This document shows, in pieces, positions 2,703 to 56,959 of a stretch of 64,000 bases of DNA. The position numbers were made by a program, and so were the translations under genes. The notes beneath the pieces are model-generated. The model saw nothing but the letters and a program-made list of their open reading frames with translations, was not told the DNA's origin and did no database searches. Origin of the DNA: Candidatus Parcubacteria bacterium (GTDB taxonomy: Bacteria > Patescibacteriota > Minisyncoccia > Minisyncoccales > JAGLUP01); the NCBI GenBank assembly GCA_023134715.1, contig JAGLUP010000002.1, positions 143,906 to 207,905 on the forward strand, given 5' to 3'. How positions within the stretch are numbered: the first letter of the stretch is position 1; every line of letters begins with the position of its first letter.

Positions 2703-2867
2703 AAAGATGGAAAGAAAAATTGAAAGTTATTTGAAAATTAAATTTACTCTGTTAAAGATCCATTTAACAGAGTAAAGCAAAATCTTGAGTTCAGTTTTTT
2801 AGAGTTGTTCCGACTCTAAATTATGCAACGTAAGTTGCAACTTTGAAAATTTTTTAAATTTTCATTT

Positions 2868-4380
<1,513 letters not shown>

Positions 4381-4515
4381 TTTACTATTTTTAATAGTAA
4401 AGAGTGTCGATTATGGTTGAAATTTAAAATTTGAATTTTAACTATAGGGAGTTGGTCAAAGCTCCTTAAAGATTGACTATTCTGAGGCCGGGACAACTCT
4501 AAGAAACTGAAAAAT

Positions 4516-4550
4516 AAAAGCGCCCCGCTTAGCGGGGCGCTTTTATTTTT
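4516..4550 (+). terminator. rho-independent terminator after the 16S gene
   Basis: gcgccccgc-ttag-cggggcgc hairpin followed by ttttattttt. Confidence 0.85.
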
Positions 4551-4581
4551 CAGTCCTTTATGGTAAAATTAATAAAATAAT

Positions 4582-6341: not shown

Positions 6342-7341
6342 AAAAATAATTGAAAATAATAATCTAAAAAAGATTTTGATTGTTCTTTTAGTTTTTTTTA
6401 CCAGCACTTTCTTGGGATTAAAAATAAATGCTTCAGACAAAAGATTGGAAAATTTTTTCTTTGAGCAAATAATTGAAAAAAATTCAGATATATTATTTGC
6501 CAAAGCTATGTCTGATAAAATACTATTACGACCAAGAAAAAATTCAAAAGCGCCTGAATTAGAGCTTGAAGCAATGGCAGCTATTTCAATATATGTAAAC
6601 CCAGAAAGAAAAGAAAAAATTCTTTTCAAAAAACAGGCCTTTGAAAAACTACATATTGCAAGTTTAACGAAATTAATGACAGCTTCAGTTTCTTTGGATA
6701 TTTACGAATTTGAACAAAAATTAGAAATAACTAAAAAAGCGGTTGAGCAGCCCGAAAGAAGGGGAGAATTAATCCCGGGAAACATTCTTTCCGTAAAAGA
6801 CCTCCTTTATACTATGCTTGTTGAATCAAGCAATGACGCAGCGCAGGCATTAGCTGAAGGAAAAACAGCTGGAAAACCAACAACAAAGGAAAAAGAATTT
6901 ATAAATTTAATGAACAAAAGGGCATTCTCTTTAAAAATGGAAAATACTCATTTTGGAAATGCTTCTGGGCTAGACCCTGAGAATAGAGAAACCCCGAATC
7001 TTTCTACGGCTAAAGATTTGAGCAAATTTATAAAATATTTAATTTTTAATCAACCTCAAATCTTGGAAATAACCAACGCGCTTTCTTATGAGGTTTCGGA
7101 AGAAAATGGCTTCCATCATTTCATTAGTGAAAATATAAATATACTTTTAAAAGAAATTCCGGAAATCATAGGAGGTAAAACCGGCTATACTGAAGAAGCT
7201 GGCGGTTGTATTATTTTAGCTTTAGAAGCGCCAAAAAATGGCTATATTATTAATGTTATTTTAGGGTCAGAATCTTCCCAAACTAGATTTGAAGAAATGA
7301 GAAAATTAATAAAATGGACCAACGGGTCTTATACTTGGTAA
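6331..7341 (+). CDS. D-alanyl-D-alanine carboxypeptidase (S11, PBP5/6-like)
   Basis: SxxK (ASLTK), SxN (SSND), KTG (KTGYT) motifs in the correct order; N-terminal TM/signal; the start is probably ATG at 6334. Confidence 0.8.
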   Translation: MMNKKIIENNNLKKILIVLLVFFTSTFLGLKINASDKRLENFFFEQIIEKNSDILFAKAMSDKILLRPRKNSKAPELELEAMAAISIYVNPERKEKILFKKQAFEKLHIASLTKLMTASVSLDIYEFEQKLEITKKAVEQPERRGELIPGNILSVKDLLYTMLVESSNDAAQALAEGKTAGKPTTKEKEFINLMNKRAFSLKMENTHFGNASGLDPENRETPNLSTAKDLSKFIKYLIFNQPQILEITNALSYEVSEENGFHHFISENINILLKEIPEIIGGKTGYTEEAGGCIILALEAPKNGYIINVILGSESSQTRFEEMRKLIKWTNGSYTW

Positions 7342-7344
7342 ATT

Positions 7345-8394
7345 ATGATTTTTTCTTTTAGTCCCAATCTTACTTTTAATATAATAAGAATATTCTTTCT
7401 TACTGCTTTAAGCTCTGGCTTGGCAGTTCTTTTAACTCCGATTCTAACTCATTTCTTGTATAAATATAAACTTTGGAGAAAAGAAGCAAGAAAAAAAACA
7501 ATCACAGGAGATGAAGCAGTCGTCTTTTATAAGCTGCACAAAGAAAGAGAGGTCAGCACGCCTCGCGGAGGTGGAATTTTAATTTGGGCAACAACCTTAA
7601 TAATTATTTTGCTTTGCGCCTTGTCGCAAGAATTTAACTTTCTTTCTCGCGGACAAACTTGGCTTCCTTTTTTCGCCTTAATGGTTGGCTCAATCGTTGG
7701 TCTTTTTGACGACATTTTGCAGGTTTTTGGCAAGGGAAAATATGTTGCCGGAGGACTTAGCTTTAAACAACGGATGGCAGTAATAATTCTTATAGGTTTA
7801 ATCGGGGGAGCTTGGTGTTATTTTAAGCTCGGATGGGATACAATTCATATTCCTTTAATAGGAGATTTATTTATTGATTTTTGGTATATTCCTCTTTTTA
7901 TAATAGTAATGCTTGCTTCATGGTCCGGAGGAATAATTGACGGCATAGACGGCTTAGCCGGAGGAATTTTTGCTATTATGTTCGGCGCTTACGGAATAAT
8001 TGCTTTCTGGCAGGGACTTTTTGATTTAGCGGCTTTTTGCGCTGTAATAAGCGGAGCGATTCTGGCGTTTTTATGGTTTAATATTCCGCCAGCAAGATTT
8101 TATATGGGAGAAACAGGAACCATAGGGCTAACTTCAGCTTTGGCTGTGGTTGCCTTTTTAACTGATTCTGTGGCTGTCCTGCCAATAATTGCCGGGCTTT
8201 TAGTAATAGAATCCGGTTCTGTAATTTTACAACTTCTCTCTAAAAAATTCAGGAAGAAAAAAATCTGGCTCTGCACTCCGATTCATCACCATTTTGAAGC
8301 CAAGGGCTGGCCTCCGCACAAAGTAACAATGCGCTTCTGGCTGATTGGAATCATTTTGGCTATTCTCGGCGTTACCATAAGATTATTAGGATAA
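7345..8394 (+). CDS. mraY: phospho-N-acetylmuramoyl-pentapeptide transferase
   Basis: 349 aa polytopic; DDxxQV-like FDDILQVFGK, IIDGIDGLAGG, PIHHHFEAKGW. Confidence 0.9.
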   Translation: MIFSFSPNLTFNIIRIFFLTALSSGLAVLLTPILTHFLYKYKLWRKEARKKTITGDEAVVFYKLHKEREVSTPRGGGILIWATTLIIILLCALSQEFNFLSRGQTWLPFFALMVGSIVGLFDDILQVFGKGKYVAGGLSFKQRMAVIILIGLIGGAWCYFKLGWDTIHIPLIGDLFIDFWYIPLFIIVMLASWSGGIIDGIDGLAGGIFAIMFGAYGIIAFWQGLFDLAAFCAVISGAILAFLWFNIPPARFYMGETGTIGLTSALAVVAFLTDSVAVLPIIAGLLVIESGSVILQLLSKKFRKKKIWLCTPIHHHFEAKGWPPHKVTMRFWLIGIILAILGVTIRLLG

Positions 8395-8399
8395 AAAAA

Positions 8400-8433
8400 G
8401 GTTCAATTCCCGACGATCGCGGGAATTTGAACC
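8400..8433. repeat. CGATCG-centred palindromic element, copy 2 (acts as mraY terminator)
   Basis: aaaaaaag-gttcaattcccgacgatcgcgggaatttgaacc-ctttttt directly after the mraY stop. Confidence 0.75.
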
Positions 8434-8491
8434 CTTTTTTGATTCCGTAAAAATTTGGTCATTAGAGTGATTATTTAAATAAATTTAGCGT

Positions 8492-8521
8492 AACAAATCT
8501 CGCCGATCGGCGAGATTTGTT
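8492..8521. repeat. 30-bp perfect palindrome centred on CGATCG
   Basis: aacaaatctcgccgatcggcgagatttgtt. Confidence 0.8.
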
Positions 8522-8539
8522 ATTTTATTTCCAGTTTAT

Positions 8540-8632
8540 TTGACAATTTAGGAAAAATTCGCTATCATTAAAATCAGAGATGAGAAAAACTCATCATCTT
8601 AAAAAATAAATATAAATAAATGGGTGATTTGA
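8540..8632 (+). promoter_or_regulatory. promoter plus conserved 5' leader of lipoprotein paralogue 1
   Basis: TTGACA-17 nt-TATCAT, then leader hairpin agatgag-aaaaa-ctcatc and GGGTGAT before ATG; about 90 nt nearly identical to 10019-10110. Confidence 0.6.
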
Positions 8633-9019
8633 ATGAAAATGAAAACGACAAAATGGATAATGGCAATAATGGGAGTATTGCTCTTATTAATGTTATCAGG
8701 ATGTGTTGATGAAAAGAAAACCACAATAAGCAGTAAGGAATATAATATTGACGGCAACGCAACAACAAAAATCGTTGAATTGGAGCCGGAAAAAACATGC
8801 TTTCTTGGTATCTGCGATTGCGAAACAAGAAAACGCCAAATAACAGGAATAATTTTAGATATTGAATTTAATCTAGGAGAACAGAGTGTTTTTGTTTTTA
8901 AAAACGGTTTTGTTACAGCCCTATATCCTGCCGAAAATTTTGACTATGTTTTAAACAAAACCCACATAATAACTGTTTCGGGCAAGAGAACGATAGTAGA
9001 TGTTCAAATTATAGAATAG
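8633..9019 (+). CDS. small lipoprotein, paralogue 1
   Basis: signal peptide with lipobox LLMLSGC; 128 aa; paralogue of 10111..10485. Confidence 0.6.
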   Translation: MKMKTTKWIMAIMGVLLLLMLSGCVDEKKTTISSKEYNIDGNATTKIVELEPEKTCFLGICDCETRKRQITGIILDIEFNLGEQSVFVFKNGFVTALYPAENFDYVLNKTHIITVSGKRTIVDVQIIE

Positions 9020-9130
9020 CTGGAATTAATTCCAGTTCTTTTTTTTGGTTTAAAAAAAAGCTATAATAAATATAATAAAAAAGTTGGACATTAAAAATCA
9101 AATAAACAAAAGGTAATAAAAGGTGATAAA

Positions 9131-9976
9131 ATGGAAACAATAAATGTTGGAATTTTCGGCGGAACCGGAAGATTAGGAGAACACTTAGTCAAAATTTTAG
9201 AAGAACACTCTGGAGTAGAAATAGTTTATACGCATAGTAGAAAAAAAGAAAATGTGAAAGGAAATTTAAATAAAACTGATTTTATATTTTTGGCCCTGCC
9301 ATACGGAAAAAGCAGATATTATCTTTCTAAAATAAAAGATAAGAGGATAATAGATTGCAGTATAGACCACCGGACAGATAGTTTCTGGATATATGGCTCA
9401 TCAGAACTAAACAGAGAAGAAATCAAAGAAGCGCAATACGTGGCAAATCCTGGCTGTTACGCAACCTCAATTATTTTATCTTTAGCTCCTCTAAAAGAAT
9501 ACGGATTGCTAACCCGTCTTAAAATCTGCGGTTTTAGCAGTATTTCTGGAGCCGGAAAAGGATTAAAAAAAGAAGAGAATGTTTTGCTTTACTCGGCAGG
9601 AAGAGAACATCCCCAAATTAAAGAAATAAAATCTGTATTAAATTTATCAGATGTTTCATTGTGCTGCTACCGAGTAGATTCAATAGATAGAGGATTAACC
9701 TCAGTCAGCTATAGTGATGGTTCTCTTGTAAATATAGATAAAATATACAAGAAATTTTATAAAGGAGAACCATTTATTAGATTAAAAGGAGAAAAAGAAA
9801 AAATTGAAACAAAAAAAGTTCAGGGAACAAATTTCTGCGATATAAAAGTTCTTAGTGACGAAAAAAATGTTACCGCAATTTCTGCTTTAGATAACATATT
9901 AAAAGGTGGGGCAGGACAAGCAGTCCAAAATTTTAATATTATGTATGACTTTAAAGAAACATTGGGACTTTTGTAA
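9131..9976 (+). CDS. argC: N-acetyl-gamma-glutamyl-phosphate reductase-like (ArgC/LysY family), short form
   Basis: N-terminal GxxGxxG (GIFGGTGRLG), active-site ANPGCYATS, C-terminal LDNILKGGAGQAVQNFNIM typical of ArgC; 281 aa is shorter than usual. Confidence 0.65.
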   Translation: METINVGIFGGTGRLGEHLVKILEEHSGVEIVYTHSRKKENVKGNLNKTDFIFLALPYGKSRYYLSKIKDKRIIDCSIDHRTDSFWIYGSSELNREEIKEAQYVANPGCYATSIILSLAPLKEYGLLTRLKICGFSSISGAGKGLKKEENVLLYSAGREHPQIKEIKSVLNLSDVSLCCYRVDSIDRGLTSVSYSDGSLVNIDKIYKKFYKGEPFIRLKGEKEKIETKKVQGTNFCDIKVLSDEKNVTAISALDNILKGGAGQAVQNFNIMYDFKETLGLL

Positions 9977-10018
9977 ACATTAAAAGCTATCGTCATAAAA
10001 TTCGATAGCTTCTTTTTA

Positions 10019-10110
10019 TTGACAATTTGGAAAAGCTTGCTATGATTAAAATCAGAGATGAGGAAAACTCATCATCTTAAAAACTAAATATAAATAAATG
10101 GGTGATATGA
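10019..10110 (+). promoter_or_regulatory. promoter plus conserved 5' leader of lipoprotein paralogue 2
   Basis: TTGACA-16 nt-TATGAT, and the same leader hairpin and GGGTGAT as 8540-8632. Confidence 0.6.
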
Positions 10111-10485
10111 ATGAAAATGACAAAATGGATAATGGGAGTTTTTTTAATTATTGTTTTGGTTTGTTTGTCTGGATGCGTTGATGAAGAAAAAACTGCCGCT
10201 AAAACAATAAACTATGGCAGCACAAATTTAACAGAAACAAGAGGGCCTCATAAAAGCTTAATTGGATTAGAACTAGATACATACAGGATAACCGGAAAGA
10301 TAATTGATATTGATTATATTATAACTAGGGAATATTTAATTACCTTTGAAGGCGATATCACTGTCCCGATATGTTCTATTGAAGGATATAATTTGGAAAA
10401 AGGAAAGTTTTACAGAATGGAAATCATTAAACATGGGGGAATTAAAGGCAGGTGCAGAAAAATAATGAAGCTGGAAGAAATCTAA
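10111..10485 (+). CDS. small lipoprotein, paralogue 2
   Basis: lipobox LVCLSGC; 124 aa; its downstream terminator/TATAAT block is also duplicated from the block after 9019. Confidence 0.6.
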   Translation: MKMTKWIMGVFLIIVLVCLSGCVDEEKTAAKTINYGSTNLTETRGPHKSLIGLELDTYRITGKIIDIDYIITREYLITFEGDITVPICSIEGYNLEKGKFYRMEIIKHGGIKGRCRKIMKLEEI

Positions 10486-10539
10486 TTCCAGTTCTTTTTT
10501 TTGGTTTAAAAAAAAGCTATAATAAACCCAGTAGTAAAG

Positions 10540-12003
10540 ATGGGTAAACTAATGAAAAATTATCTTTTCTTTCGGAAAAAATATCCTAAATTTGTTTATC
10601 AGGGATATTCATACAAAATAGCTAAAAATGATTTGCAAATTTCATTTGATTTTGCTATTAGACCGGATATTTTTTTTAAGCCAAAAGTAACTATAAAAAA
10701 TATTAATAAAAAAAAATTGGCGCTGATAGGGGAGAAGGCATTAAATAATTTAATTTTTCATTTGGGTTTGATAGAGCTTATCAGCTATTGGAAATCAACT
10801 TGTTCGCCAGAAATTGAAATTAAAGCTGGCCACCTGAATAAAGAACAAATTAAATGGTGGAAAGATTTAATTATAAATGGAATGGGCGAATTTTTTTATA
10901 AAAATAAAATTGATTTTACGCAAGTAAATTTCCTTAAAATAACATCAAAGCCCTCCATGCCCAATGTAACGAGAAGCGATCTCGTTACATTGAAAAAGAG
11001 GGTGATTGCGCCGATTGGGGGAGGAAAGGACTCAATAGTAACTATGGAGATTTTAAAAAAACAAGGAAAAGATATTAATTGCTTTTCTCTAAATCCGACT
11101 CAAACAGCAAAAAGAGTAATGAGAGTCGGCAATTGTAAAAACCCAATTATTGTCAATAGAAAAATTGACAAAAAACTTTTAGAATTAAACCAAAATGGCT
11201 ATCTTAACGGCCACACTCCTTTTTCAGCTTATTTGGCTTTTTTAAGCATATTTTGCGCTGTAATTTTTGATTATAAATATATTGCGTTTTCAAATGAAAG
11301 AAGCGCAAGCGAAGGAAATTTAAAATATTTAGGAAAAACAATTAATCATCAATATTCAAAAAGTTTTGAATTTGAGCAAAAATTCAGGGATTATTCAAAA
11401 AAATATTTAGCTAAAAACGCAGAATATTTTAGCTTTTTGCGGCCTTTATATGAAATCCAAATAGCAAAATTATTTTCTCAATTTCCTCAATATTTTCCTG
11501 TATTTTTAAGCTGTAACGAAGCGTATAAAACTAATTCCGGCAGAAAAAAACCAGAAAAAAAATGGTGCGGAAATTGCTCTAAGTGTTTATTTGTTTTTGC
11601 AATTTTATATCCTTTTGTTGAAGAGAAAAATTTAATTAAAATTTTTCGTAAAAATCTTTTTGAAAATAAAAAATTACTGCCAATAATGTTAGAACTAATA
11701 GGCCTGCCCGCATCCCGCAAAGACGGGAAGTCGTTGCAGGCGGGGGAGAGAAGATTTAAACCGTTTGAATGCGTGGGAACAAAAAAAGAATGCCTTATTG
11801 CTTTTTACCTTGCCCGCCGTAGCTTTAAGCGAAGGAGGGTTAACAAAAATCTTCCTTATCTTTTGAAATATTTTGAAAAGAAAATTTTGCCAAAACATCC
11901 CGAATTAGAAAAAGAATCAAAAAAAATAATGTGTTCATGGGATAAGCAAAACAATTTACCCAAAAATTTTAAAAAAATACTGAAAAAGATTGACAAAAAT
12001 TAA
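10540..12003 (+). CDS. PP-loop (GGGKDS) ATP-pyrophosphatase-superfamily protein with C-terminal CxxCxKC; function unknown (MurL-type epimerase is a hypothesis)
   Basis: APIGGGKDSIV resembles the SGGxDS PP-loop; WCGNCSKC Cys cluster as in QueC-like enzymes; 487 aa; carries two GC-rich repeat insertions. Confidence 0.45.
   Translation: MGKLMKNYLFFRKKYPKFVYQGYSYKIAKNDLQISFDFAIRPDIFFKPKVTIKNINKKKLALIGEKALNNLIFHLGLIELISYWKSTCSPEIEIKAGHLNKEQIKWWKDLIINGMGEFFYKNKIDFTQVNFLKITSKPSMPNVTRSDLVTLKKRVIAPIGGGKDSIVTMEILKKQGKDINCFSLNPTQTAKRVMRVGNCKNPIIVNRKIDKKLLELNQNGYLNGHTPFSAYLAFLSIFCAVIFDYKYIAFSNERSASEGNLKYLGKTINHQYSKSFEFEQKFRDYSKKYLAKNAEYFSFLRPLYEIQIAKLFSQFPQYFPVFLSCNEAYKTNSGRKKPEKKWCGNCSKCLFVFAILYPFVEEKNLIKIFRKNLFENKKLLPIMLELIGLPASRKDGKSLQAGERRFKPFECVGTKKECLIAFYLARRSFKRRRVNKNLPYLLKYFEKKILPKHPELEKESKKIMCSWDKQNNLPKNFKKILKKIDKN
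11701..11747. repeat. GC-rich hairpin element inserted in frame inside CDS 10540..12003
   Basis: ggcctgcccgcatcccgcaaagacgggaagtcgttgcaggcggggga; GC-rich island in AT-rich CDS; same hairpin family as 58111-58160 and 13985-14065. Confidence 0.6.
11808..11841. repeat. second GC-rich hairpin element inside CDS 10540..12003
   Basis: ccttgcccgccgtagctttaagcgaaggagggtt closely matches intergenic cttgcctcgccgaagtttaaacgaaggcgggtt (55925-55957) and ccctccatagttttaacgaaggaggg (55973-55998). Confidence 0.65.
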
Positions 12004-12076
12004 AAATGTAATAGTATAATAACAGATATAGATATATTATAGTCATTTTAAAATAAAATATAAAGAGGTGGAAAAA

Positions 12077-12376
12077 ATGGGATTAGGAGAAAAAGTAAAT
12101 GCGCGCGCTGAAGAGATGGTTGTAGAAGGTGAAAGGCAACGGCTAGATAAGAAACTCGATGGAGCAAGCTCTATTCAAGAAATAAGAACCGCTCTTTTAG
12201 AAGAATTGGTAAGATTAAAAAAATGGGGTTCTATTTTAGAAAAACAAAAACAAGAAAACAGGGAATACTTTGAAGAATTAGAAAAAAAGACAAAGGAATC
12301 AGGACAAAAAAATCAAGAAAGCACAAGGCAAATAATTGAAAGATTGCACACTCTTGTATTGAGAAACCCAATTTAA
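12077..12376 (+). CDS. hypothetical coiled-coil protein
   Basis: ORF track starts at GTG 12068, but GAGGTGG precedes ATG 12077; followed by a hairpin terminator (12378-12405). Confidence 0.4.
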   Translation: MGLGEKVNARAEEMVVEGERQRLDKKLDGASSIQEIRTALLEELVRLKKWGSILEKQKQENREYFEELEKKTKESGQKNQESTRQIIERLHTLVLRNPI

Positions 12377-12499
12377 AAAGGAGATAAAATCTCCTCTTTT
12401 TTTTGTTGAAAATCTATGCTATTTTGAATAAAAAAATAAACAAAACAATTTACCCAAAAATCTTTATTGTAAGGAGCTAAGCTCCTTACAATTTTGTAT

Positions 12500-12573
12500 T
12501 TGACAAACATGTTAAGTGGTTGTATTTTATAAGTAAGTAGCACTTATTAAAATAAAATATAAGGGTGATAAAA
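12500..12573 (+). promoter_or_regulatory. promoter plus leader cassette (copy 1) driving HMG-CoA reductase
   Basis: TTGACA-17 nt-TATTTT then ...aagtagcacttattaaaataaaatataagGGTGATAAAAATG; near-identical copy at 14198-14271. Confidence 0.65.
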
Positions 12574-13710
12574 ATGAAAGAAGTTGATATACGAAGAAAG
12601 GCAATAGAAGAACTTACAAATACCAATTTAAAAGGTATTGGAGATTTTTCAATAAGTCCAGATTCGGCTGATGGAAATATTGAAAACATGATTGGAGCAG
12701 TCCAAGTTCCAATAGGTATAGCCGGGCCCCTTAAAGTAAACGGTGAATTAGCCAAGGGAGAATATTATATTCCTTTGGCTACAACTGAAGGAGCGTTAGT
12801 AGCTAGTGTCAATCGAGGATGTTCAGTGATAACTGCTTCAAAGGGAGCCAATACTTGGGTTTTTAAAGATAAAATGACCAGAGCTCCAGCGATTAGAACG
12901 AAGGGCATAGCAGAAACAAAATTATTGCTGGATTGGATAAAATTAAATTTTGAACAAATTAAACAAAAGGCCGAAAAAACTACTCTGTTTGGTAAATTAA
13001 TACAAATTGTGCCGCATATAGCAGGAAATACTATTTTTCTTCGGTTTGAGTATACTACTGGGGACGCAATGGGTATGAATATGGTTACGATTGCCACTGA
13101 CGAAGCAGTTAAGCTTATTGCTGAAAAAACAAATACGGAACTCATTGCTTTATCGGGAAATATGTGCGCAGATAAAAAACCTGCATGGCTTAATTCAATT
13201 GAAGGCAGAGGGAAAAGTGTTGTGGTGGAAGTAATAATTCCAGAAAAATTAGTAAAATCAAAGTTAAAAACTACTCCATCTTCCTTTATAGAAGTAGTCC
13301 ATCGAAAAATTTCTATTGGTTCAGCTTTGGCAGGTTCCCTTGGTTTTAACGCACATGTGGCAAATGTAATAGCAGGAATTTTCATTGCTACTGGACAGGA
13401 TGCGGCTCATGTAGTAGAAGCAAGTAATGCCATCACTACCGCTGAAATAGTTCAAGGCAACAAATTGTATGTTTCTGTAACGCTGCCTTCTCTATTGGTA
13501 GGCACAATCGGCGGGGGAACCGGACTAAAAACTCAAAACGAATGTTTAAATATTTTAGGAGTAGCAGGAGGTGCTGATTTTCCCGGAGAAAACGCTAAAA
13601 AATTTGCTGAAATTGTAGCTGCCGCAGTTCTTGCTGGAGAAATTTCTTTAATTGCCGCTTTATCTACTGGTGATTTGGCAAAAGCCCACCAGAGATTAGC
13701 CCGCACATAA
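12574..13710 (+). CDS. hmgA: hydroxymethylglutaryl-CoA reductase, class I (short, soluble form)
   Basis: TTEGALVASVNRGC, TGDAMGMNMV, VGTIGGGT motifs; start moved from GTG 12565 to ATG 12574 (the GTG lies inside the SD-like GGTGAT). Confidence 0.85.
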   Translation: MKEVDIRRKAIEELTNTNLKGIGDFSISPDSADGNIENMIGAVQVPIGIAGPLKVNGELAKGEYYIPLATTEGALVASVNRGCSVITASKGANTWVFKDKMTRAPAIRTKGIAETKLLLDWIKLNFEQIKQKAEKTTLFGKLIQIVPHIAGNTIFLRFEYTTGDAMGMNMVTIATDEAVKLIAEKTNTELIALSGNMCADKKPAWLNSIEGRGKSVVVEVIIPEKLVKSKLKTTPSSFIEVVHRKISIGSALAGSLGFNAHVANVIAGIFIATGQDAAHVVEASNAITTAEIVQGNKLYVSVTLPSLLVGTIGGGTGLKTQNECLNILGVAGGADFPGENAKKFAEIVAAAVLAGEISLIAALSTGDLAKAHQRLART

Positions 13711-13799
13711 CGAGCGAAAAAATCGCTCGTTTTTTTTATTGAAAATTTGTGTTATTTTAAATAAAAAAATAAATAAAACAATCTACCTAAAAATCTTGA

Positions 13800-14153
13800 A
13801 AAAATGTTAAGAAAAAAAGTGTTTTCTAATCCACATATCAAATACGACACAAATACCACTGCTACATAGCAGTAGTATTTGTGTCCCCTTTGTCGTTCAG
13901 TTCGCAAGTCATTCATCAATGAGTCAATATTTTTACAAACGACCTGCGGCCGCAGATGATTTATAAACTCGAGATTCTTCGCCTGCCTCGCCCGCATTGC
14001 TACGCCAGCCCGACAGCCTGACGGCAGTCATGGCGGCGGGCAAAACGTTGCGGGCGGGCTGGCTCAGAATGACAAAGGGACGCTCAGAATGACGTCTCCC
14101 TTGTTATTGCGAGGAGCGACTGAAAGGAACGACACGACAATCTTCGAAAAAAA
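13800..14153. repeat. non-coding cluster of GC-rich palindromic repeat elements
   Basis: hairpin gacacaaataccactgcta-ca-tagcagtagtatttgtgtc; ctgcggccgcag; reverse-oriented copies of the gtcattctgagc...gaagaatct element (agattcttcgcctgc, ggctcagaatgac x2); gcgaggagcgac...; sits exactly where the paralogous locus at 12465-12499 has only a 33-bp palindrome. Confidence 0.7.
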
Positions 14154-14187
14154 GGTTCAACTTTCAACGATCGCGGGGATTTGAACC
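14154..14187. repeat. CGATCG-centred palindromic element, copy 3
   Basis: ggttcaactttcaacgatcgcggggatttgaacc with A-run/T-run flanks. Confidence 0.7.
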
Positions 14188-14197
14188 CTTTTATAAT

Positions 14198-14271
14198 TTG
14201 ACAAATAGGTTAAATAGTTGTATTTTATAGGCAAGTAGCACATATTAAAATAAAATATAAGGGTGATAAAA
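14198..14271 (+). promoter_or_regulatory. promoter plus leader cassette (copy 2)
   Basis: TTGACA-17 nt-TATTTT and the same leader and GGGTGATAAAAATG as 12500-12573. Confidence 0.65.
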
Positions 14272-14700
14272 ATGGAAGAAAATAATGAAGGAAAAATCAA
14301 GGAAGACGCTGGAAAAATAACTGAGGGCAAAAGGACAAACTATTTTATTCCCGTATTAATAGTATTGTCGTTTAGCAGTTTTATAGTTTCTTTAGGGTTG
14401 CTACAAGATATTTTTCTATCTTTAGGAACAGCTTTATTTGTTTTTACACTATTTTTCTTCGGACCAATGAGTTTGTTAGTAATAGAAATAGCTAATAAGC
14501 ATTTTTTCGAAAGGAATGAAAAAGAATGGACAAAGATAACTAAAGAAGAGTTTTGTATGACAGCTGTGTGGGATGGAATATTTCTTCTCTTGTTTATTGC
14601 GAGTGGTTTTAATTTCTGGTTTTTCATACTTTTTATAATTGCGTTTATTGTTTTCCGTTATATATTTTTTAGTGCGTTTGTGATATTAGGAGATAATTAG
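14272..14700 (+). CDS. hypothetical integral membrane protein
   Basis: four hydrophobic segments; start taken at ATG 14272 after GGTGATAAAA. Confidence 0.5.
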   Translation: MEENNEGKIKEDAGKITEGKRTNYFIPVLIVLSFSSFIVSLGLLQDIFLSLGTALFVFTLFFFGPMSLLVIEIANKHFFERNEKEWTKITKEEFCMTAVWDGIFLLLFIASGFNFWFFILFIIAFIVFRYIFFSAFVILGDN

Positions 14701-14742
14701 CAATAATGAATTTATGGAACCAAAAAAAACAAGGTGATAAAA

Positions 14743-14961
14743 ATGACAGAAAATACTGAAAAAGATAAAAAAAGGGAAATTAGAAAAAAAGAACTTAAAC
14801 AAGAATTTAAGCATATACTTGAGGAAATCAACAAGAATGAAGAAGAGGCAACGCCGCGAAGCCCTGAGAATATGTTTAAGGAGGCGTTAAGATTAGTTGA
14901 TTGGCTTGGTAGAAAATGGAGAATTGAAGATTATCAGGAAAAAATCGGTATAAAATATTAA
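14743..14961 (+). CDS. hypothetical small charged protein
   Basis: 72 aa after AAGGTGATAAAAATG; hairpin terminator follows (about 14971-14998). Confidence 0.4.
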   Translation: MTENTEKDKKREIRKKELKQEFKHILEEINKNEEEATPRSPENMFKEALRLVDWLGRKWRIEDYQEKIGIKY

Positions 14962-15033
14962 TTATAAAAAATAAGAGCGATAAAAAGCTCTTTTTATTTT
15001 GATTTTTAAACTATTTTAGATTATTATAAAGAA

Positions 15034-16428
15034 ATGAAGTTAAATAAATTAGAAAATAAAAAAATTCTGGTTTTAGGATTGGGGAGAGAGGGGATAGACA
15101 CGCTCAAGTTTTTGAGGAAATTATTTCCTGAAAAAATCTTAGGAGTGGCGGATGAGTCAGAAATTAAAAAACTGAACAAGCCCGCCCAAATTTTGCTAAA
15201 AGCAAAAATTGTGGCGGGCAGGAAAATTAAAACTCATTTTGGGAAAAATTATCTCAAGACGCTTAAAGATTACGATGTAATAATTAAATCGCCTGGAATT
15301 CCGACAAAAAAGATAGAGCCGTTTTTAAAAAACAAACAGGACTTAACTTCTCAGACAGAAATCTTTTTTGAAAATTGTCCGAGTAAAATTATAGGAATTA
15401 CCGGCACTAAAGGAAAAAGCACTACCGCTTCTTTGATTTATCAGATATTAAAAGCAGGGAAAATAAAAACTCACCCCTTTAAATCCTTTCCGGCTAGCCG
15501 AAAAGGAATTTCGCCAAAGGAGAAATTATTTAACAGGGTGAACTTAATAGGAAATATTGGCACGCCAGTTTTATCTTATTTAAAAAACGCCAAGAAAAAT
15601 GATATTTTTGTCTATGAACTTTCCTGCCATCAACTGCAAAACCTTAAAAAATCACCGCATATTGCGGTATTATTGAATATATACCCAGAACACTTGGATT
15701 ATTACAAAAACTTCCAGGATTACATAAACGCAAAGGCAAACATTACAAAATATCAGACCAAGCAGGATTATTTGATTTATAACTCGCGAAATAAAATTGT
15801 TTCTAAAATTGCGAAAAATTCTAAGGCAAAAAAAATTCCTATCCCTACGAATTTACGAATATTTACGAATATACGAATTACGAATACGATTCCGGAAGAA
15901 AACATAATGGCAGCCGTTGCTATCGGAAAAATATTTAAAGTTCCAGAAAAAATTATTAAAAAAGCTATAAATAACTTTAAATCTCTCGCTCATAGATTAG
16001 AATTTATCGGAGAATTCAAGAAAATAAGATTTTACAATGACTCCTTATCAACCATTCCCGAAGCCACGATTGAGGCCTTAAATTTTTTGGGAAATGACGC
16101 GCAAACTTTAATCTTAGGCGGATATGATAGGGGACTGGACTTTAAAAATTTAGGCGAAAGAATTAAAAAAAGCAAAATAGAAACTCTGATTTTATTCCCC
16201 GAAACCGGCAGAAGAATTTGGAAAGAAATCAAAAAAAACAATAAAAATAATTTTTTAAAGCACTTTTTCGTTTATGATATGAAAGAAGCTATAAAATTGG
16301 CATATAAAAATACTGACAAGGGAAAAATATGTTTGCTTTCTCCTGCTTCTCCGAGTTTTGGAATTTTCAAAGATTACAAAGAAAGAGGAGATTTATTCAA
16401 AAAATATGTAAGGGCTGACTCGCGATGA
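15034..16428 (+). CDS. murD: UDP-N-acetylmuramoylalanine--glutamate ligase with two repeat-derived insertions
   Basis: GLGREG N-terminal Rossmann, [12 protein letters not shown]-loop, GNIGTP, Mur ligase C-terminal region; position upstream of ftsW-murG. Confidence 0.85.
15472..15540. repeat. 69-nt palindromic element inserted in frame in murD
   Basis: outer stem caccc...gggtg enclosing tcctttccggcta/tagccgaaaagga and aatttc...gaaatt hairpins; encodes about 23 extra residues ([24 protein letters not shown], approximate boundaries) between the P-loop helix and GNIG. Confidence 0.65.
15847..15888. repeat. interrupted TACGAAT tandem repeat (5 copies) inside murD
   Basis: tacgaat-t-tacgaat-att-tacgaat-a-tacgaat-tacgaat, translated as [14 protein letters not shown]. 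Confidence 0.8.
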
Positions 16429-20636: not shown

Positions 20637-20647
20637 CTTTATCACCT

Positions 20648-20863
20648 CTAAAAATTAATACCTTCAAGAACCATCATAGTCCCCACAAATAAAAATAATA
20701 GATATATTAGAAACCGCTCTTTAAGAATTTTTTTCTCAAAAATAAAACTTTCTTGGCGTAATTTAAATAATATTATTTTTAATTCACATATTGCACAATA
20801 GCATATGCAAATCCCCATAATTGAGAAACCAATCCCGAATAAATACCTTATTATGTCATCCAT
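20648..20863 (-). CDS. small membrane protein
   Basis: 71 aa, two TM helices, GAGGTGATAAA before ATG; tandem with 20421..20636. Confidence 0.45.
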   Translation of the reverse strand: MDDIIRYLFGIGFSIMGICICYCAICELKIILFKLRQESFIFEKKILKERFLIYLLFLFVGTMMVLEGINF

Positions 20864-20903
20864 TTTATCACCTCAACAAATTTTCAAATATCTATGTCTT
20901 TAA

Positions 20904-21465: not shown

Positions 21466-22839
21466 ATGAAAAAATCTCATAAATCAATAATAGACCATAT
21501 TCCCCTTTTTTTAAAACATTTGAAAAAGGAAGATTATTCTGGTCATACTGAAAAAAACTATAAACGTTATCTAAATAGATTTATATTGTGGCTTAAAAAA
21601 ATAAAGAAAGAAACTCTTAAGCCACACGAATTAACTGCTGACGATATTAAAAATTATAAATTTTATCTTTCTGTATCTAAATCTAAAAATGAAAAAACTC
21701 GCCTTTTAAAGCTTATTACTCAAAACTACTATTTAATCGCCCTGAGAGCCATTTTGAGCTATTTTACAGCCAAAGACATAGTTTCGCTCCCAGCAGATAA
21801 AATAAAACTGCCGAAAAACGCTCAGGATGGGAAAACCATAAAATTTCTCAATTTAAACCAAGTTGAGCAACTTTTAATGATTCCTGACACTAAAATAAAA
21901 ATCGGATTAAGAGACCGAGTTATTTTAGAACTTTTGATTTTTAATGGATTTAAACTGTCTAAACTCGTAAATTTAAACAGAAATGCAATTAAATCGCTTT
22001 CAAAAAGAAACATTGATTATGTTAAACAATATTTAAAATCTCGCAAAGATAAAAAAAATGCTCTACTTGTTCGTTATAGTGGTCGCAAAGATGCAGAAAG
22101 CCGTCTCACACCTCGCTCCATAGAAAGAATTATTAATAAATACGGAGAGAAAATCGGGCTTAACTTTCGGCTTACGCCTGAAATTTTACGTAAAAGTTAT
22201 GCTCTTGGCCTATTAGAAGAACAAAAAAAAATAAAAATTTATAAGCCTCAAGCTCACGAAATTTCTTTTATTAAAAACTACGACATATCAATTCCTTTTC
22301 AAAAGAAAATAAAAAATGGCATATCCCCTGCTTGGAATGTTGTTGAGTCTATTATTGAGGAAGAAATAAACTGGCTAAAAAACAATATTTCTGTTTTACC
22401 TGAAAGATATAAAAAAAACTTTTTATTATTGAGCGATGCCCTAATTTTGCGAAAAATAGCAATTTTAATTGTAAACGGCAGGATAAGGGCTACTGAATTT
22501 AATTCTGAAAAAAATAATCTATGGAATAACTGTAGAAAAAAATCAAAACTTAATAAAATAAATCGGCATGGAAAAGAATGGCACAAAAAAATGATGAATG
22601 TGGTTTATGAATACTTTAAGCTTAAAAATTATAAAGTAGCCATAGAACCAACTCTAAATTACGGACGAGCAGATTTAGGAATTTACTCAAATTCAAAAAG
22701 AACTTCTCTAAAAGAAGTTCTTTATATTGAAATAGGCACAGTATCCTTATATAAACTCTGGTATAATCTTTCATCAATGAAAAATGTCACTTTTCTAATT
22801 ATTCCCTCTAAAAAATACGCAATAGAATTTAAAATTTAA
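21466..22839 (+). CDS. degenerate tyrosine-recombinase-like protein fused to a C-terminal PD-(D/E)xK-like domain
   Basis: SAM-like N domain and box I (LRDRVILELL..G.KLSKLVNL) are present, but HxLRH is replaced by EILRKS and the GH...Y segment is missing; C-terminus GRADLG...YIEIGT resembles a restriction-endonuclease-fold core. Confidence 0.5.
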   Translation: MKKSHKSIIDHIPLFLKHLKKEDYSGHTEKNYKRYLNRFILWLKKIKKETLKPHELTADDIKNYKFYLSVSKSKNEKTRLLKLITQNYYLIALRAILSYFTAKDIVSLPADKIKLPKNAQDGKTIKFLNLNQVEQLLMIPDTKIKIGLRDRVILELLIFNGFKLSKLVNLNRNAIKSLSKRNIDYVKQYLKSRKDKKNALLVRYSGRKDAESRLTPRSIERIINKYGEKIGLNFRLTPEILRKSYALGLLEEQKKIKIYKPQAHEISFIKNYDISIPFQKKIKNGISPAWNVVESIIEEEINWLKNNISVLPERYKKNFLLLSDALILRKIAILIVNGRIRATEFNSEKNNLWNNCRKKSKLNKINRHGKEWHKKMMNVVYEYFKLKNYKVAIEPTLNYGRADLGIYSNSKRTSLKEVLYIEIGTVSLYKLWYNLSSMKNVTFLIIPSKKYAIEFKI

Positions 22840-22843
22840 TTAT

Positions 22844-23788
22844 ATGAAAAAAATACAACTTCCTGATTTAGATGATTTTCTTTTAGATCTTCAAGTTAAT
22901 AATCTTTCCGAGAAAACAGTTTATAGTTATGAACGAGATTTAGAAGTTTTTCAAAATTTTCTAAAAGAAATAAATATTGAATTTGATAATATTGATAAAA
23001 AAACAATTCTTAATTATAAGGCTTATTTAGTTTCTCGAGACAGAAAAACAGCTAAATCTCAAAAAAGTAAAAAACGACTTAGTAGTTATTCTATAAATAA
23101 AATGTTATCTGCTATTCGTTCCTATTTAAAATTTTTAATAGATATGGATTATAAGTCTCCCATATCTCCCAGCGAGATTAAATTAGTAAAAACCGAAAAA
23201 AAGCACCCTCGCGTTTCAGAGCTTGAAGAAATAATAAAATTAATTCAATTTCCCACGCAATTTGAAAAAAATAAGATTATTGCTTTGCGCAATCGAGCAG
23301 TGCTTGAAACTTTATTTTCTACTGGAATGAGAATTTCTGAAGTTATAAACTTAAAAAAAGAACAAATTGATAAAACAGGAAGAATCTTTATTATGGGCAA
23401 AGGCAAAAAAGAAAGATTCGTTTATTTGACGCCGAGAGCACAAAAACATATTAAAAAATACTTAGAAGTTAGAGGTATAACAAGTTCTTCTTACCTATTT
23501 ATTCCTTATAGAGGAAAAAATGTAAACTTAAAGGATAAAAAACTTTCTCCTAATTATCTAGAAGAAAAAGTTAAAAAATATCGTGAATTACTTGGATTAA
23601 ATGTCCCTGTTTCTGTCCATGGTATTCGCCATGCATTTGCAACATATTTAGCAGAAAGCGGAGCTAGCCCAGCTGCTATTCAAATATTATTAGGCCATGA
23701 ATCTTTAGATACAACTACAAAATATGTTCATGCTTCCGACCGTTATGCGCAAAAAATTCATCAAAAATTCCACCCTCTCAAGGAATAA
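22844..23788 (+). CDS. tyrosine recombinase XerC/XerD family, catalytically complete
   Basis: RNRAVLETLFSTGMRISEV, HGIRHAFATYL, LLGHESLDTTTKYVH (R, HxxR, H, Y). Confidence 0.85.
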   Translation: MKKIQLPDLDDFLLDLQVNNLSEKTVYSYERDLEVFQNFLKEINIEFDNIDKKTILNYKAYLVSRDRKTAKSQKSKKRLSSYSINKMLSAIRSYLKFLIDMDYKSPISPSEIKLVKTEKKHPRVSELEEIIKLIQFPTQFEKNKIIALRNRAVLETLFSTGMRISEVINLKKEQIDKTGRIFIMGKGKKERFVYLTPRAQKHIKKYLEVRGITSSSYLFIPYRGKNVNLKDKKLSPNYLEEKVKKYRELLGLNVPVSVHGIRHAFATYLAESGASPAAIQILLGHESLDTTTKYVHASDRYAQKIHQKFHPLKE

Positions 23789-36953: not shown

Positions 36954-37148
36954 TTAAATTTTATGATTGCCCGTTTTTAATCCTCCAAATTTATTTTCAT
37001 AGCTTTTGATTAAATTAGACTGTTCTATATTAGCATCTCTCGCTGCCTTATTTATTATTTTTTTTTGTTCACCTGACGATAAGCTAAAAAAATCTGTTTT
37101 TGATTTATTTGATCCTCTTTTTAGAAATTTGGATATTTTTTTAATCAT
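36954..37148 (-). CDS. hypothetical small protein
   Basis: 64 aa; ATGA overlap with the upstream gene 37145..37666. Confidence 0.3.
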   Translation of the reverse strand: MIKKISKFLKRGSNKSKTDFFSLSSGEQKKIINKAARDANIEQSNLIKSYENKFGGLKTGNHKI

Positions 37149-37666
37149 AATTTTAATCTTAATGATTTAATAGTATATTCCATTCTTAAATGATTGTCAA
37201 TGTCTTCAATATTAAACCAAGTCTTTTCAACTCTATTAGAATAATTTTTTTTAATCAAAAAAATTTGTATCTTATCTTTAAAATCTGCTTTTATCTTTTT
37301 CATATTTTCTTTCGCATTAAAGAATGATTTTATAAATACTTCTTTTGGAACATGTCTGCCTTCTAATTTTTCCCTTTTTTTTGTAAAATCCCATGCAATT
37401 AGAGGGTCTTGGTATATATAAAAAATTGCGGCAATACGATTTTTCTTAATAGACCTCTCTACATTACTATAAGAAATCTTGTAATTAGCAAATGTACCGT
37501 CAATTACCTCCTCCACTTCCACCTCAACAACCTGAAGCTCCTCATTTTCCCCAACTCCAGAAAGCTCAGATTGATTTTGATAAATATCAAACCCAAACAA
37601 CAAAGAAAACAAAACCACCAAGACCCCCAAAATAATTTTCAATAACCTTTTCCCATTTTTAAACAT
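37145..37666 (-). CDS. chimeric protein: nuclease-type signal peptide fused to a zeta-toxin-like C-terminal fragment (no P-loop)
   Basis: First about 45 aa and about 110-150 nt nearly identical to the start of 36450..36839; the remainder (IAWDFTKKREKLEGRHVPKEVFIKSFFNAKEN) resembles the C-terminal half of zeta/AAA_33 kinases; Walker A absent. Confidence 0.4.
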   Translation of the reverse strand: MFKNGKRLLKIILGVLVVLFSLLFGFDIYQNQSELSGVGENEELQVVEVEVEEVIDGTFANYKISYSNVERSIKKNRIAAIFYIYQDPLIAWDFTKKREKLEGRHVPKEVFIKSFFNAKENMKKIKADFKDKIQIFLIKKNYSNRVEKTWFNIEDIDNHLRMEYTIKSLRLKL

Positions 37667-41434: not shown

Positions 41435-41524
41435 TAGTTTCGGTAAAAATAAATCGTGGAAAAATGATAATTCTTAATTTTTTCTTGTGTCATAAATCAT
41501 ATTTATATCATTATAATGCTCTAA

Positions 41525-41929
41525 TTATATCATTGCTGTTTTCTTAATTGAATCTAAAACCCAATCTCCTCTTAGTTTGTCTTTCATATTTTCAACTTCT
41601 TTGAGGGAAAACCATTGAGCGTCAAGAATTTCATCTTTGGGGAAATTAAGTCGTCCGTCAATTATTTTAGCTCTAAAAGAATGCTTTACTGGAGCTTTTG
41701 CGTTCTCGTGAAAAATATCTATTTTTTTTAATAGTTCAACATTATAACCAGTTTCTTCTTTAGCTTCCTTAACAGCAGTTTCTTCAATTGATAAACCCTG
41801 CTCTACCCTACCAGCAGGAAGATTCCATTTTCCATAACATTGAGCCTGCTTTTCTTGAACTAATAAAAACTTGCCATCTTTTTCAATAACCACTCCAGCT
41901 GCGACACCTATTTTAACTAAATTTTCCAT
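41525..41929 (-). CDS. NUDIX hydrolase, copy 1
   Basis: Nudix box GRVEQGLSIEETAVKEAKEETGY; 134 aa; 3 aa differences from 48888..49292. Confidence 0.85.
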   Translation of the reverse strand: MENLVKIGVAAGVVIEKDGKFLLVQEKQAQCYGKWNLPAGRVEQGLSIEETAVKEAKEETGYNVELLKKIDIFHENAKAPVKHSFRAKIIDGRLNFPKDEILDAQWFSLKEVENMKDKLRGDWVLDSIKKTAMI

Positions 41930-46742: not shown

Positions 46743-47138
46743 TTAATGACTTGGTGGATCACTTTTTTCACTTAGCTCTATTTTGAAAAAGCTTTGATCA
46801 TCGGGGTCAATTTCTCCGACAAAAACTTCCATACTCCCTCCGTCATGATTGCAACAAAGAGAGTTTCCGACGAAATGGCATATATCAACAGCCAAATCAT
46901 CTCTTAACCTCTTTGTTCTTTCTTGACTAGAAAGAAAATCAACGTAAACAAGTATTTTATTTCCTATTTGTTTTTTAATATTTATCCCGTCGACATAAAT
47001 CTCTGTCTTATCGTCAAATTTCACAATCACCTCCTTAGATTCCACCTTTAACTTTTCTACTATAATCCGTGTAACCAAACTTGCTACACCATCCCTTGAC
47101 TCTCCTTCTGGAAGTCCTTCAATCCTTATAATTGGCAT
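46743..47138 (-). CDS. hypothetical protein, possibly tautomerase-like (Met-Pro start)
   Basis: The track ORF starts at TTG 47204; an internal ATG gives MPIIRIEG..., reminiscent of 4-OT/MIF Pro-1 enzymes; weak. Confidence 0.3.
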   Translation of the reverse strand: MPIIRIEGLPEGESRDGVASLVTRIIVEKLKVESKEVIVKFDDKTEIYVDGINIKKQIGNKILVYVDFLSSQERTKRLRDDLAVDICHFVGNSLCCNHDGGSMEVFVGEIDPDDQSFFKIELSEKSDPPSH

Positions 47139-48736: not shown

Positions 48737-48856
48737 TTATCTTCCTTTTTGTCTATTCTCTTTTTCAATGTTGTTTCCAACCGTGCATTCTTTGTAAATA
48801 TGATATACTTCTGTTTTTTCGTCTGTATGATATGGTTTAACTTTTTTGGGTTTCAT
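48737..48856 (-). CDS. possible 39-aa small protein (below ORF-track cutoff)
   Basis: MKPKKVKPYHTDEKTEVYHIYKECTVGNNIEKENRQKGR; a VYH..C..G..I...N pattern I recall only loosely; its first codons are part of the NUDIX-associated duplication. Confidence 0.25.
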   Translation of the reverse strand: MKPKKVKPYHTDEKTEVYHIYKECTVGNNIEKENRQKGR

Positions 48857-48887
48857 AAATTTTATTTATATCATTATAATGCTCTAA

Positions 48888-55766: not shown

Positions 55767-55792
55767 TGTTTTTACCTCCGCAGGAATAATGT

Positions 55793-56427: not shown

Positions 56428-56431
56428 TTAT

Positions 56432-56933: not shown

Positions 56934-56959
56934 TTTTACACCTCTGCGGAAATAATATT

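Follow-up and report, generated by a model that had tools for sequence, protein, structure and literature searches.

The 64 kb window analysed here, a stretch of 64,000 nucleotides from an organism named by NCBI 'Candidatus Parcubacteria bacterium' (window GC content 32%), carries a 16S rRNA gene whose 3' tail lacks the anti-Shine-Dalgarno (anti-SD) core CCUCC, together with a set of genes preceded by a GGTGAT motif whose extended form GUGAUAA is complementary to the altered tail. In all, ~80 kb of the source genome and 10–21 kb of each relative were read. An Rfam scan of the window returned one full-length bacterial 16S rRNA and a tRNA-Lys, and nothing else. The 16S rRNA gene lies at 2866–4379 on the forward strand and matches RF00177 over model positions 1–1533 at full length, scoring 1421.6 bits against a gathering score of 50. 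It stands alone: no 23S gene follows, and a terminator and protein genes come next, the first of them encoding a response regulator. The aspartyl-tRNA synthetase (AspRS) is 100% identical to a protein of an NCBI 'Candidatus Parcubacteria bacterium' (GCA_030673145.1), the next named matches being Parcubacteria DG_74_2 and Nealsonbacteria, so that the affiliation with Parcubacteria comes from source names rather than from phylogeny. Three assemblies (an NCBI metagenome-assembled genome (MAG), ENA and Logan) share an identical 16S tail and trailer, and the same reads possibly lie behind all three.

Helix 45, with 10 bp and a GGAA loop, occupies 4343–4366 of the forward strand, as judged by its fold, by a consensus fold with compensatory pairs in relatives and by the covariance-model alignment. 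The 3' tail that follows it, GAUUAUCACAUUUAUUU (4367–4383, forward strand), is together with G4366 the ungapped homologue of the canonical GGAUCACCUCCUUUCU, both in the covariance-model alignment and in an alignment with the relatives L059, L071 and L073. Read from G4366 the tail is G A U U A U C A C A U U U, ending at 4379, and then AUUU. The 16S 3' end, GGAUUAUCACAUUU, can be laid on the canonical GGAUCACCUCCUUU without gaps in both the covariance-model and the four-species alignments, and differs from it by C1533U, C1535U, U1537A and C1539A, which the covariance model places with high posterior probability. At 1535–1539, where a canonical anti-SD has CCUCC after helix 45, substitution has left UCACA. 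Inspection of the sequence from 4367 up to the processing stem found no CCUCC, as the earlier note on this DNA had stated. The canonical AUCAC (1531–1535) is destroyed as well and reads AUUAU. The tail contains UUAUCAC (4369–4375, forward strand), a perfect complement of GUGAUAA with a predicted duplex energy of −7.1 kcal/mol. Since the tail is ungapped, this heptamer corresponds to E. coli positions 1532–1538, the normal place of the SD helix. The earlier note had seen here a pair shifted towards the 5' part of the tail, or else an atypically organised 3' end; the first is contradicted by the overlap of UUAUCAC with the canonical SD-helix site, the second by the ungapped tail and by a trailer that is conserved and covaries in relatives. 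Judged from these alignments, the 16S 3' end is normally organised and its anti-SD core has been lost through point substitution.

Synteny around the AspRS gene led to a relative present in four samples (L059–L062), with an AspRS 82% identical and a 16S ~85% identical to those of the window and the same gene order around the 16S gene. It is the only lineage to keep the 16S gene beside those for the response regulator and AspRS; in relatives whose AspRS is 75% identical, a histidine kinase takes that place. Four more Parcubacteria 16S 3' ends were reached through homologues of a LAGLIDADG endonuclease encoded in the 16S intron of L059. With the canonical GGAUCACCUCCUUUCU as the ungapped reference, the window tail reads GGAUUAUCACAUUUAU (core UCACA), that of L059 GGACCACUUCAUUUAU and that of L075 GGAUCACUUCAUUAAA (core CUUCA in both), that of L073 GGAUCAUAUCCUUUUU (core UAUCC) and that of L071 GGAUCAUUACAUUUUA (core UUACA). 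In L074, a Nealsonbacteria MAG (GCA_019923625.1, 11385–11470), helix 45 passes straight into a trailer hairpin, GAUUAUUGUUGGUUUGCGAGAAUUCUC, and the whole 3' tail appears to have been deleted. CCTCCT is absent from the 16S 3' end of the window and of all five of these loci (L059, L071, L073, L074 and L075), and the comparison with related genomes that had been proposed earlier thus finds tails that are degenerate, differently each time, or missing in 5/5 sampled related loci. The loop region of helix 45 is GCGGAAGC in L071, L073 and L075 vs. GGGGAACC in the window and L059, with compensatory changes in the stem; to our knowledge GGGGAACC is near-universal in helix 45 and holds the dimethyl-adenosine site.

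The L059 16S gene carries an 885-nt insertion (8030–8914) encoding the LAGLIDADG endonuclease, at the equivalent of window position 3922, and a second insertion of ~200 nt near its 5' end (6812–7028); the window 16S has neither. Homologous LAGLIDADG endonucleases number 767 in assemblies of the Candidate Phyla Radiation (CPR) at E ≤ 1e-10, and more LAGLIDADG open reading frames (ORFs) lie downstream in L073 and L075. A metagenome scan with a helix-45 pattern found ~28 CPR 16S genes, all with canonical tails and 73–78% identical to the window 16S; they are too distant to serve as relatives and were used as a control set. A scan of viral contigs gave no matches. The pattern AGGGGAACCT-N7-GGATTAT, applied to genome contigs, gave 19 matches, all of them non-rRNA chance hits; it is one base off the window sequence (N7 then GATTAT) and is uninformative on GTDB genomes.

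The region downstream of the tail, 4380–4511, aligns as trailer and is homologous in all relatives. On the forward strand it holds hairpin 1 (4381–4401; fold and alignment), which is also present in L073 and absent from L059 and L071, hairpin 2 (4412–4446), whose fold is kept in all relatives with compensatory pairs, and hairpin 3 (4447–4466), whose folded stem covaries in L059, L071 and L073. The consensus trailer fold comprises two hairpins with compensatory changes inside a long-range helix, and the trailer element GUCGAUUAUGG and the hairpins are common to relatives and to the spacers of canonical-tail CPR loci; the spacer element GUCGA was found with the help of the latter. The 3' strand of the pre-16S processing stem, ACAACUCUAAGAAAC (4488–4511, forward strand), is kept in relatives by alignment and forms a 23-bp duplex with the 5' strand in the leader (2790–2812, forward strand). 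It is followed at 4521–4551 on the same strand by a GC-rich stem-loop of intrinsic-terminator form, GCGCCCCGC / GCGGGGCGC and then a T run. The CUCCUUA heptamer noticed earlier is present at 4462–4468 and does lie inside a hairpin: CUCC (4462–4465), in the 3' strand of hairpin 3, pairs with GGAG (4448–4451). The corresponding stem is GGAU/AUCC in L059 and AGGUG/CACCU in L071. Because CUCC is a covarying stem strand, the heptamer is best taken as a stem-sequence coincidence and not as an anti-SD. A displaced or split anti-SD, made by joining CAC at 4375 to CUCCUUA at 4462, was rejected in view of the conserved trailer, the covariation in hairpin 3 and the ungapped tail. An rRNA intervening sequence or intron in the tail was likewise rejected, as there is no extra sequence relative to the homologues and the same joining in L059 yields no CCUCC.

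GGTGAT occurs 24 times on the two strands of the window, against ~21 copies estimated from base composition, and so shows no overall excess. Eleven of these copies stand 3–6 nt ahead of a plausible gene's start codon, against an expectation of ~0.06 (Poisson P ~1e-21, or 4e-15 with paralogous copies collapsed to eight). In an unbiased k-mer test over positions −22 to −1 of 80 predicted starts, GGTGAT was the top hexamer (10/80 vs. 0.23 expected, p=5e-14); it is the most enriched G-containing hexamer upstream of starts, followed by GTGATA, AGGTGA and GAGGTG, the rest of the enriched words being generic and A/T-rich. From the end of the motif to the start codon there are 3–6 nt, mostly 3–4, and not the 5–8 nt first reported; seven genes have GTGAT beginning at −9 and two have it at −8. 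In being enriched at a fixed distance upstream of starts, the motif behaves as an SD-type element does. The earlier statement that many genes carry it is right as to enrichment and too generous as to extent: about 14–15% of genes have the motif, or ~20% with the partial forms GAGGTGG, AGGTGA and GAGGTGA, and some sites are local duplicates (8633/10111 and 12574/14272). The other ~85% of genes have no SD-like sequence and are A/U-rich upstream, and no SD-like motif precedes any housekeeping gene of the window (aminoacyl-tRNA synthetases, Mur ligases, FtsW, CTP synthase, bL9, DnaK and DnaJ). The suspicion of an unusual initiation system is borne out to this extent, with a majority of SD-less genes and a GGTGAT class alongside. 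A further five sites lie in flanking DNA of this genome: GAGGTGATAA twice, and GAGGTGA, GGAGGAGGTGA and GGGTGAT once each. Compared with the 11 genes in the 64 kb window, one orthologous gene only has GGTGAT before its start in 79 kb of relatives, and none does in 149 kb of canonical-tail CPR loci, which use AGGAG or GGAGG.

Every GGTGAT site listed earlier is present. On the forward strand, GGGTGAT stands at 8622–8628, 4 nt before the ATG at 8633 of a 128-aa lipoprotein, and again at 10100–10106 before the ATG at 10111 of a paralogue, the 98 nt upstream being 91% identical. AGGTGATAA is found at 9121–9129, 1 nt before the ATG at 9131 (a semialdehyde-dehydrogenase-like protein of 281 aa), and at 14732–14740 before the ATG at 14743 (72 aa). 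GGGTGATAA precedes the ATG at 12574 of an HMG-CoA reductase of Methanosarcinales type (motif at 12563–12571) and the ATG at 14272 of a 142-aa membrane protein (motif at 14261–14269), where the promoter-leader module duplicates 12498–12598. On the reverse strand, GAGGTGATAA occurs at 20639–20648 before the ATG at 20636 (a 71-aa membrane protein), at 20865–20874 before the ATG at 20863 (71 aa; the syntenic small gene after that for glutamyl-tRNA synthetase (GluRS) keeps the motif in L055 and L059) and at 63746–63755 before the ATG at 63743 (70 aa). The same strand has GAGGTGAT at 58504–58511, 4 nt before a GTG start at 58499 (~52 aa), and AGGTGAT at 63309–63315, 6 nt before the ATG at 63302 (123 aa). 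Partial forms are GAGGTGG at 12065–12071 on the forward strand, 5 nt before the ATG at 12077 (99 aa), and on the reverse strand GAGGTGA at 62924–62930, 5 nt before the ATG at 62918 (53 aa), and AGGTGA at 57985–57990, 7 nt before the ATG at 57977 (a 77-aa membrane protein). Two genes have classical sites, AGGAGGT at 504–510 on the forward strand, 9 nt before the ATG at 520 of aroD and kept in L059, and GGAGGT at 55774–55779 on the reverse strand, 7 nt before the ATG at 55766 (97 aa); neither can pair with the tail.

At 12565, 14263, 14734, 20645, 63308 and 63752 the GTG within GGTGAT shares the reading frame of the real ATG, which lies three codons downstream (two at 63308). The program-made ORF list starts these six ORFs at that GTG, as does the gene call for the gene at 14743 (75 aa). 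Gene callers take this GTG, which makes it a systematic source of start mis-annotation in this genome.

The predicted energies favour pairing of the motif with the tail of its own genome. The 7-nt match of GUGAUAA to UUAUCAC pointed out earlier is perfect, at about −7 kcal/mol; the GGUGAUAA duplex has −7.1 kcal/mol with the window tail vs. −3.8 to −4.2 kcal/mol with four other degenerate tails. The real sites reach −7.4 to −12.6 kcal/mol. Natural SD sites typically have duplex energies of −7 to −9 kcal/mol, and the window motif is alike in this. Among upstream regions, 8.7% reach ≤ −8 kcal/mol against the window tail, vs. 1.2–1.4% of random or shuffled controls. The full complement of the tail GGAUUAUCACAUUU is UGUGAUAA. 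When GGAGGUGA and GGUGAUAA are compared in the normal register they differ at three positions, each mirroring an rRNA change (U1537A, C1535U and C1533U), while C1539A (A4376) is not mirrored and the mRNA keeps G there. Two further signs of pairing were set aside. AA follows GGTGAT at 9/13 sites (p=0.002), or 6/10 independent ones (p=0.03), an excess confounded by A-rich spacers; AA is present in L059 and L055 too, and it was rejected as a sign of pairing with UU. Pairing of the A/U part of the tail, AUUUAUUU, with AAAUAAAU-like upstream sequence was also rejected, the enriched A/T-rich k-mers being diffuse from −30 to −3.

The reading we consider most likely, with roughly an even chance of being correct, is a residual SD, or a re-tuned one, whose helix with the mutated tail would span 7 bp. 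Point substitution has degraded the anti-SD core, and most genes begin translation with no docking site. A minority class retains (GA)GGUGAU(AA), ending 3–4 nt before the start codon, and its GUGAUAA could form seven Watson-Crick pairs with UUAUCAC (4369–4375). At GAGGUGAUAA sites the pairing would extend over 9/10 positions, with one G·A mismatch at A4376 and one G·U pair, and the helix would lie at the usual SD-helix position, equivalent to 1532–1541. We infer that 4369–4379 are still present at the mature 16S 3' end, and that helix formation takes place in the ribosome and promotes initiation. A natural re-coding, in which the change of CCUCC to UCACA (with C1533U) was followed by the leadered genes going from GGAGGUGA to GGUGAUAA, would be compensatory at three of the four changed positions and would leave a reduced, re-tuned SD channel for ~15% of genes and SD-independent initiation for the rest; to us this seems doubtful.

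Several observations weigh against pairing with the mutated tail. A hypothetical canonical tail explains more upstream regions than the real one, 18.8% vs. 8.7% at −8 kcal/mol or better. The first G is invariant at every GGTGA site of the window and flanking DNA yet stands opposite A4376; TGTGAT, the true complement, is never found upstream of a start, and no U was seen at the first-G position. The classical GGAGGT sites of aroD and of the gene at 55766 reach only about −2 to −3 kcal/mol against an 18-nt tail, and bare GGAGG reaches 0.0 kcal/mol against a 16-nt tail, in line with the earlier remark that they cannot pair with it; the AGGAGGT of aroD is nevertheless conserved in L059. In the small gene next to the GluRS gene, (G)AGGTGATAA is conserved in L055 (for which no 16S was recovered) and in L059, where the tail GGACCACUUCA pairs with it over only ~4 bp; this one testable orthologue shows no covariation. 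On paper, GGUGAUAA pairs no less well with three internal 16S sites. GGAGGT, GAGGTG, GGTGAT and TAAGGAGGTGAT read like substrings of a canonical extended SD, and GGUGAU may also be a canonical SD shifted by three nt; the spacing data suit both readings. The tail itself looks unconstrained and fast-evolving across the clade. The window is GGTGAT-rich with a UCAC core, and in L059, where the core is CUUC and pairs with GAGGUG, most sites are of GGAGG type, although these counts are small; a Fisher test of motif type by genome was set aside, as GGAGGTGAG of L059 falls in both classes.

Genes carrying the motif are short (median 111 aa vs. 190, p=0.04) and mostly encode predicted lipoproteins or membrane proteins, a class best described as membrane, secreted or accessory. 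Many of them have been inserted into a conserved cell-wall (mur/ftsW) cluster, which L059 and L066 have without interruption. Sigma-70-like TTGACA-16/18-TATAAT pairs lie 41–72 nt upstream of several motif-bearing genes and are predicted to give leaders of 35–65 nt. In promoter-bearing genes without the motif the gaps are mostly 6–35 nt, with three above 55 nt; given the small sample and the A/T-rich background, this is only suggestive of leaderless or short-leader mRNAs. TAnnnT hexamers are in excess at gaps of 0–12 nt, with a weak peak at 6, again against an A/T-rich background, and a full −35/−10 pair at a gap of 6–9 nt was seen in three genes only. The HMG-CoA reductase (NADPH) gene (12574–13710) looks like an archaeon-to-CPR transfer: its best 120 homologues (57–64% identity) are archaeal wherever named, being from Methanoperedens, Methanosarcina and other Methanosarcinales, with the nearest at 60–64%, and no other Parcubacteria occur among them. 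The 101-nt promoter-leader-GGTGATAA module ahead of it (12498–12598) is repeated at 85% identity before an unrelated membrane-protein gene. GC and GC content at third codon positions (GC3) are equal in motif-bearing and other genes. Recent horizontal transfer as the source of the motif was rejected in view of this equality and of the native leader module; by composition and context, the motif is apparently native rather than a donor relic, and the genes carrying it are apparently long-resident.

The accessory genes at 8394–15034 are set into a conserved GT4 - MurL - MurD - FtsW - MurG - GluRS cluster and framed by repeats, namely 98-nt and 101-nt promoter-leader modules (91% and 85% identical) and 61–82-nt downstream modules. 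A 52-nt hairpin repeat occurs at 8393 and 14147, and the layout resembles a cassette array. The semialdehyde-dehydrogenase-like gene (9131–9976) lies near the HMG-CoA reductase gene.

The motif could instead be of canonical type and without function here, a leftover of an ancestral or donor SD on accessory genes that the ribosome ignores. GGAGGTGAT is a better fit to the motif family than the tail actually present, the first G never varies though unpaired, and GGAGG sites are present and conserved. The insertion of motif genes (absent from L059 and L066) into the mur/ftsW cluster and the apparent archaeal origin of the HMG-CoA reductase fit as well, and surveys find that organisms without an anti-SD are generally without SD (PMC6107228). 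An unused motif should, however, decay at 32% GC, whereas core and position are kept at ~10 independent sites and the motif persists across species whose 16S is only ~85% identical. It also moves with a native sigma-70 promoter-leader module duplicated in place, its genes match the genome in composition, and the strict spacing of 3–4 nt implies selection on the distance to the start codon. We judge such a relic unlikely. Less probable again is that GGTGATAA is recognised not by the 16S tail but, for instance, by a protein (ribosomal or regulatory), by a different part of the rRNA or at the level of DNA. Conservation of the first G, and of the 8–10-mer as a whole, exceeds what tail pairing demands, conservation in L059 is independent of the L059 tail, several internal 16S sites equal or exceed the tail in paper complementarity, and GTGATAAAAT resembles an extended −10 element (TGnTAAAAT). 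On the other hand, a fixed distance of 3–4 nt, purine-rich composition and an A-rich spacer are what characterises SD-type ribosome-binding sites; transcription from a −10 element at this place would begin inside the gene, and the internal 16S sites sit in helices or in the decoding centre.

A canonical anti-SD might also be hidden, either in a second or heterogeneous 16S with CCUCC or in an RNA joining CAC (4375) to CUCCUUA (4462) to give UUAUCACCUCCUUA. GAGGTGATAA, at five sites of which two are in flanking DNA, is a perfect 10-nt complement of this joined tail (about −15 kcal/mol), a C opposite the first G would account for its invariance, and the GGAGG sites would be accounted for. Yet 4376–4461 is ordinary trailer, shared down to GUCGAUUAUGG and the hairpins with relatives and canonical-tail CPR spacers, the CUCC hairpin strand is AUCC in L059, where joining gives no CCUCC, and 86 nt is too short for a self-splicing intron. 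The degenerate or missing tails in 5/5 sampled relatives stand against it too, and CPR genomes normally have a single rRNA operon copy, which counts against a hidden second 16S. This is the explanation to which we give the least credence, and a very slight one.

Pairing of the motif with the mutated tail would resemble the canonical SD/anti-SD system (GGAGG with CCUCC at 1535–1539) in having a purine-rich motif at a fixed short distance before the start, complementary to the single-stranded tail after helix 45, with the helix at the same physical place. It differs in that the rRNA core is UCACA instead of CCUCC and the motif core GGUGA instead of GGAGG, in that only ~15% of window genes are concerned, and in the conserved mismatch of A4376 with the first G. 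GGTGAT-type SDs of archaea and low-GC Firmicutes pair with AUCACC (1531–1536) of the canonical tail. The hexamer and the short spacing to the start are the same in the window, but AUCACC is now AUUAUC and the only perfect partner is a new AUCAC 3 nt further 3'. Engineered specialised or orthogonal ribosomes, reportedly made by Hui and de Boer in 1987 and by Rackham and Chin in 2005, are said to combine a changed anti-SD core with a changed SD in a subset of mRNAs, and the step from GGAGGUGA to GGUGAUAA, which mirrors U1537A, C1535U and C1533U, would be of this kind. Unlike them, the window case is natural and a candidate only, would involve a single ribosome population and leaves C1539A uncompensated.

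Loss of the anti-SD in part of the Parcubacteria is already published, CCTCCT having been detected in only 48% of them (Tsurumaki et al. 2022, RNA 28:1041, PMC9297842), and our five extra tails agree. Tsurumaki et al. assume that no SD helix forms in Parcubacteria lacking the anti-SD (PMC9297842). The window shares with that subgroup the Parcubacteria name, the absence of CCTCCT, degenerate relatives and mostly SD-less genes; the paper has no tails matched to upstream motifs and no GGTGAT class, whereas the window has a complementary motif. Amin et al. (2018) listed 128 taxa without CCUCCU and concluded that such organisms lack SD; their survey of 20,648 taxa turned up no enriched variant SD with a perfectly complementary variant anti-SD (PMC6107228). 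Anti-SD-less Flavobacteriia, Mycoplasma and Carsonella (PMC6107228, citing Lim et al. 2012) are like the window in the loss of CCUCCU and in largely SD-independent initiation, and the organisms of Amin et al. are unlike it in that no variant anti-SD/SD match was found there, compared with the 7-nt perfect match here. We found no report in the literature of GGTGAT-type sites or leaderless initiation in Parcubacteria. Absent from these papers is a motif placed so regularly before the starts of one gene class and complementary to the altered tail of the same genome. In the published view anti-SD loss means that SD initiation has been given up, and this genome is a concrete counter-candidate. If the pairing is true, natural SD/anti-SD pairs can drift apart and match again, genes can be divided by class between translational channels (leadered accessory vs. 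SD-free housekeeping), and the window holds a natural orthogonal SD/anti-SD pair. If re-coding is true, this would be the first example from nature of a variant anti-SD and a variant SD that match, a combination not found in the survey of 20,648 taxa (PMC6107228). Should the pairing not be real, the conservation of a partnerless motif would need explaining and would point to another recognition mechanism.

The remaining observations concern other parts of the window. With regard to the group without ribosomal protein uL1, with which the anti-SD-less Parcubacteria subgroup may overlap, no uL1 gene was found among the scanned window proteins (bL9 included), a 64-kb window being uninformative on genome-wide absence. 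Toxin-antitoxin modules at 56179–57673 and 37145–37666 (HicB/HicA, DUF2683 with a YafQ/ParE-like toxin, and a zeta toxin) carry no SD-like motif. Directly upstream of the aroD ribosome-binding site, 433–497 consists of 10.8 tandem copies of AAGTAT. Two tandem tyrosine recombinase genes (21466–23788) follow the block of GluRS and small genes, the first being a weak, partial match to the catalytic domain, and L055 and L066 have an integrase at the corresponding position. Two copies of a 300-nt direct repeat (41464–41763 and 48827–49126; 96% identical) cover the 3' part of two NUDIX genes and beyond. The ~7 kb between these copies encode an Mrr-like endonuclease, a truncated DNA methylase and an ORF after a perfect canonical TAAGGAGGTGAT (47026–47037). 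By coordinate arithmetic two NCBI MAG contigs end about at these repeats, and the window assembly bridges this repeat-flanked, possibly mobile island.

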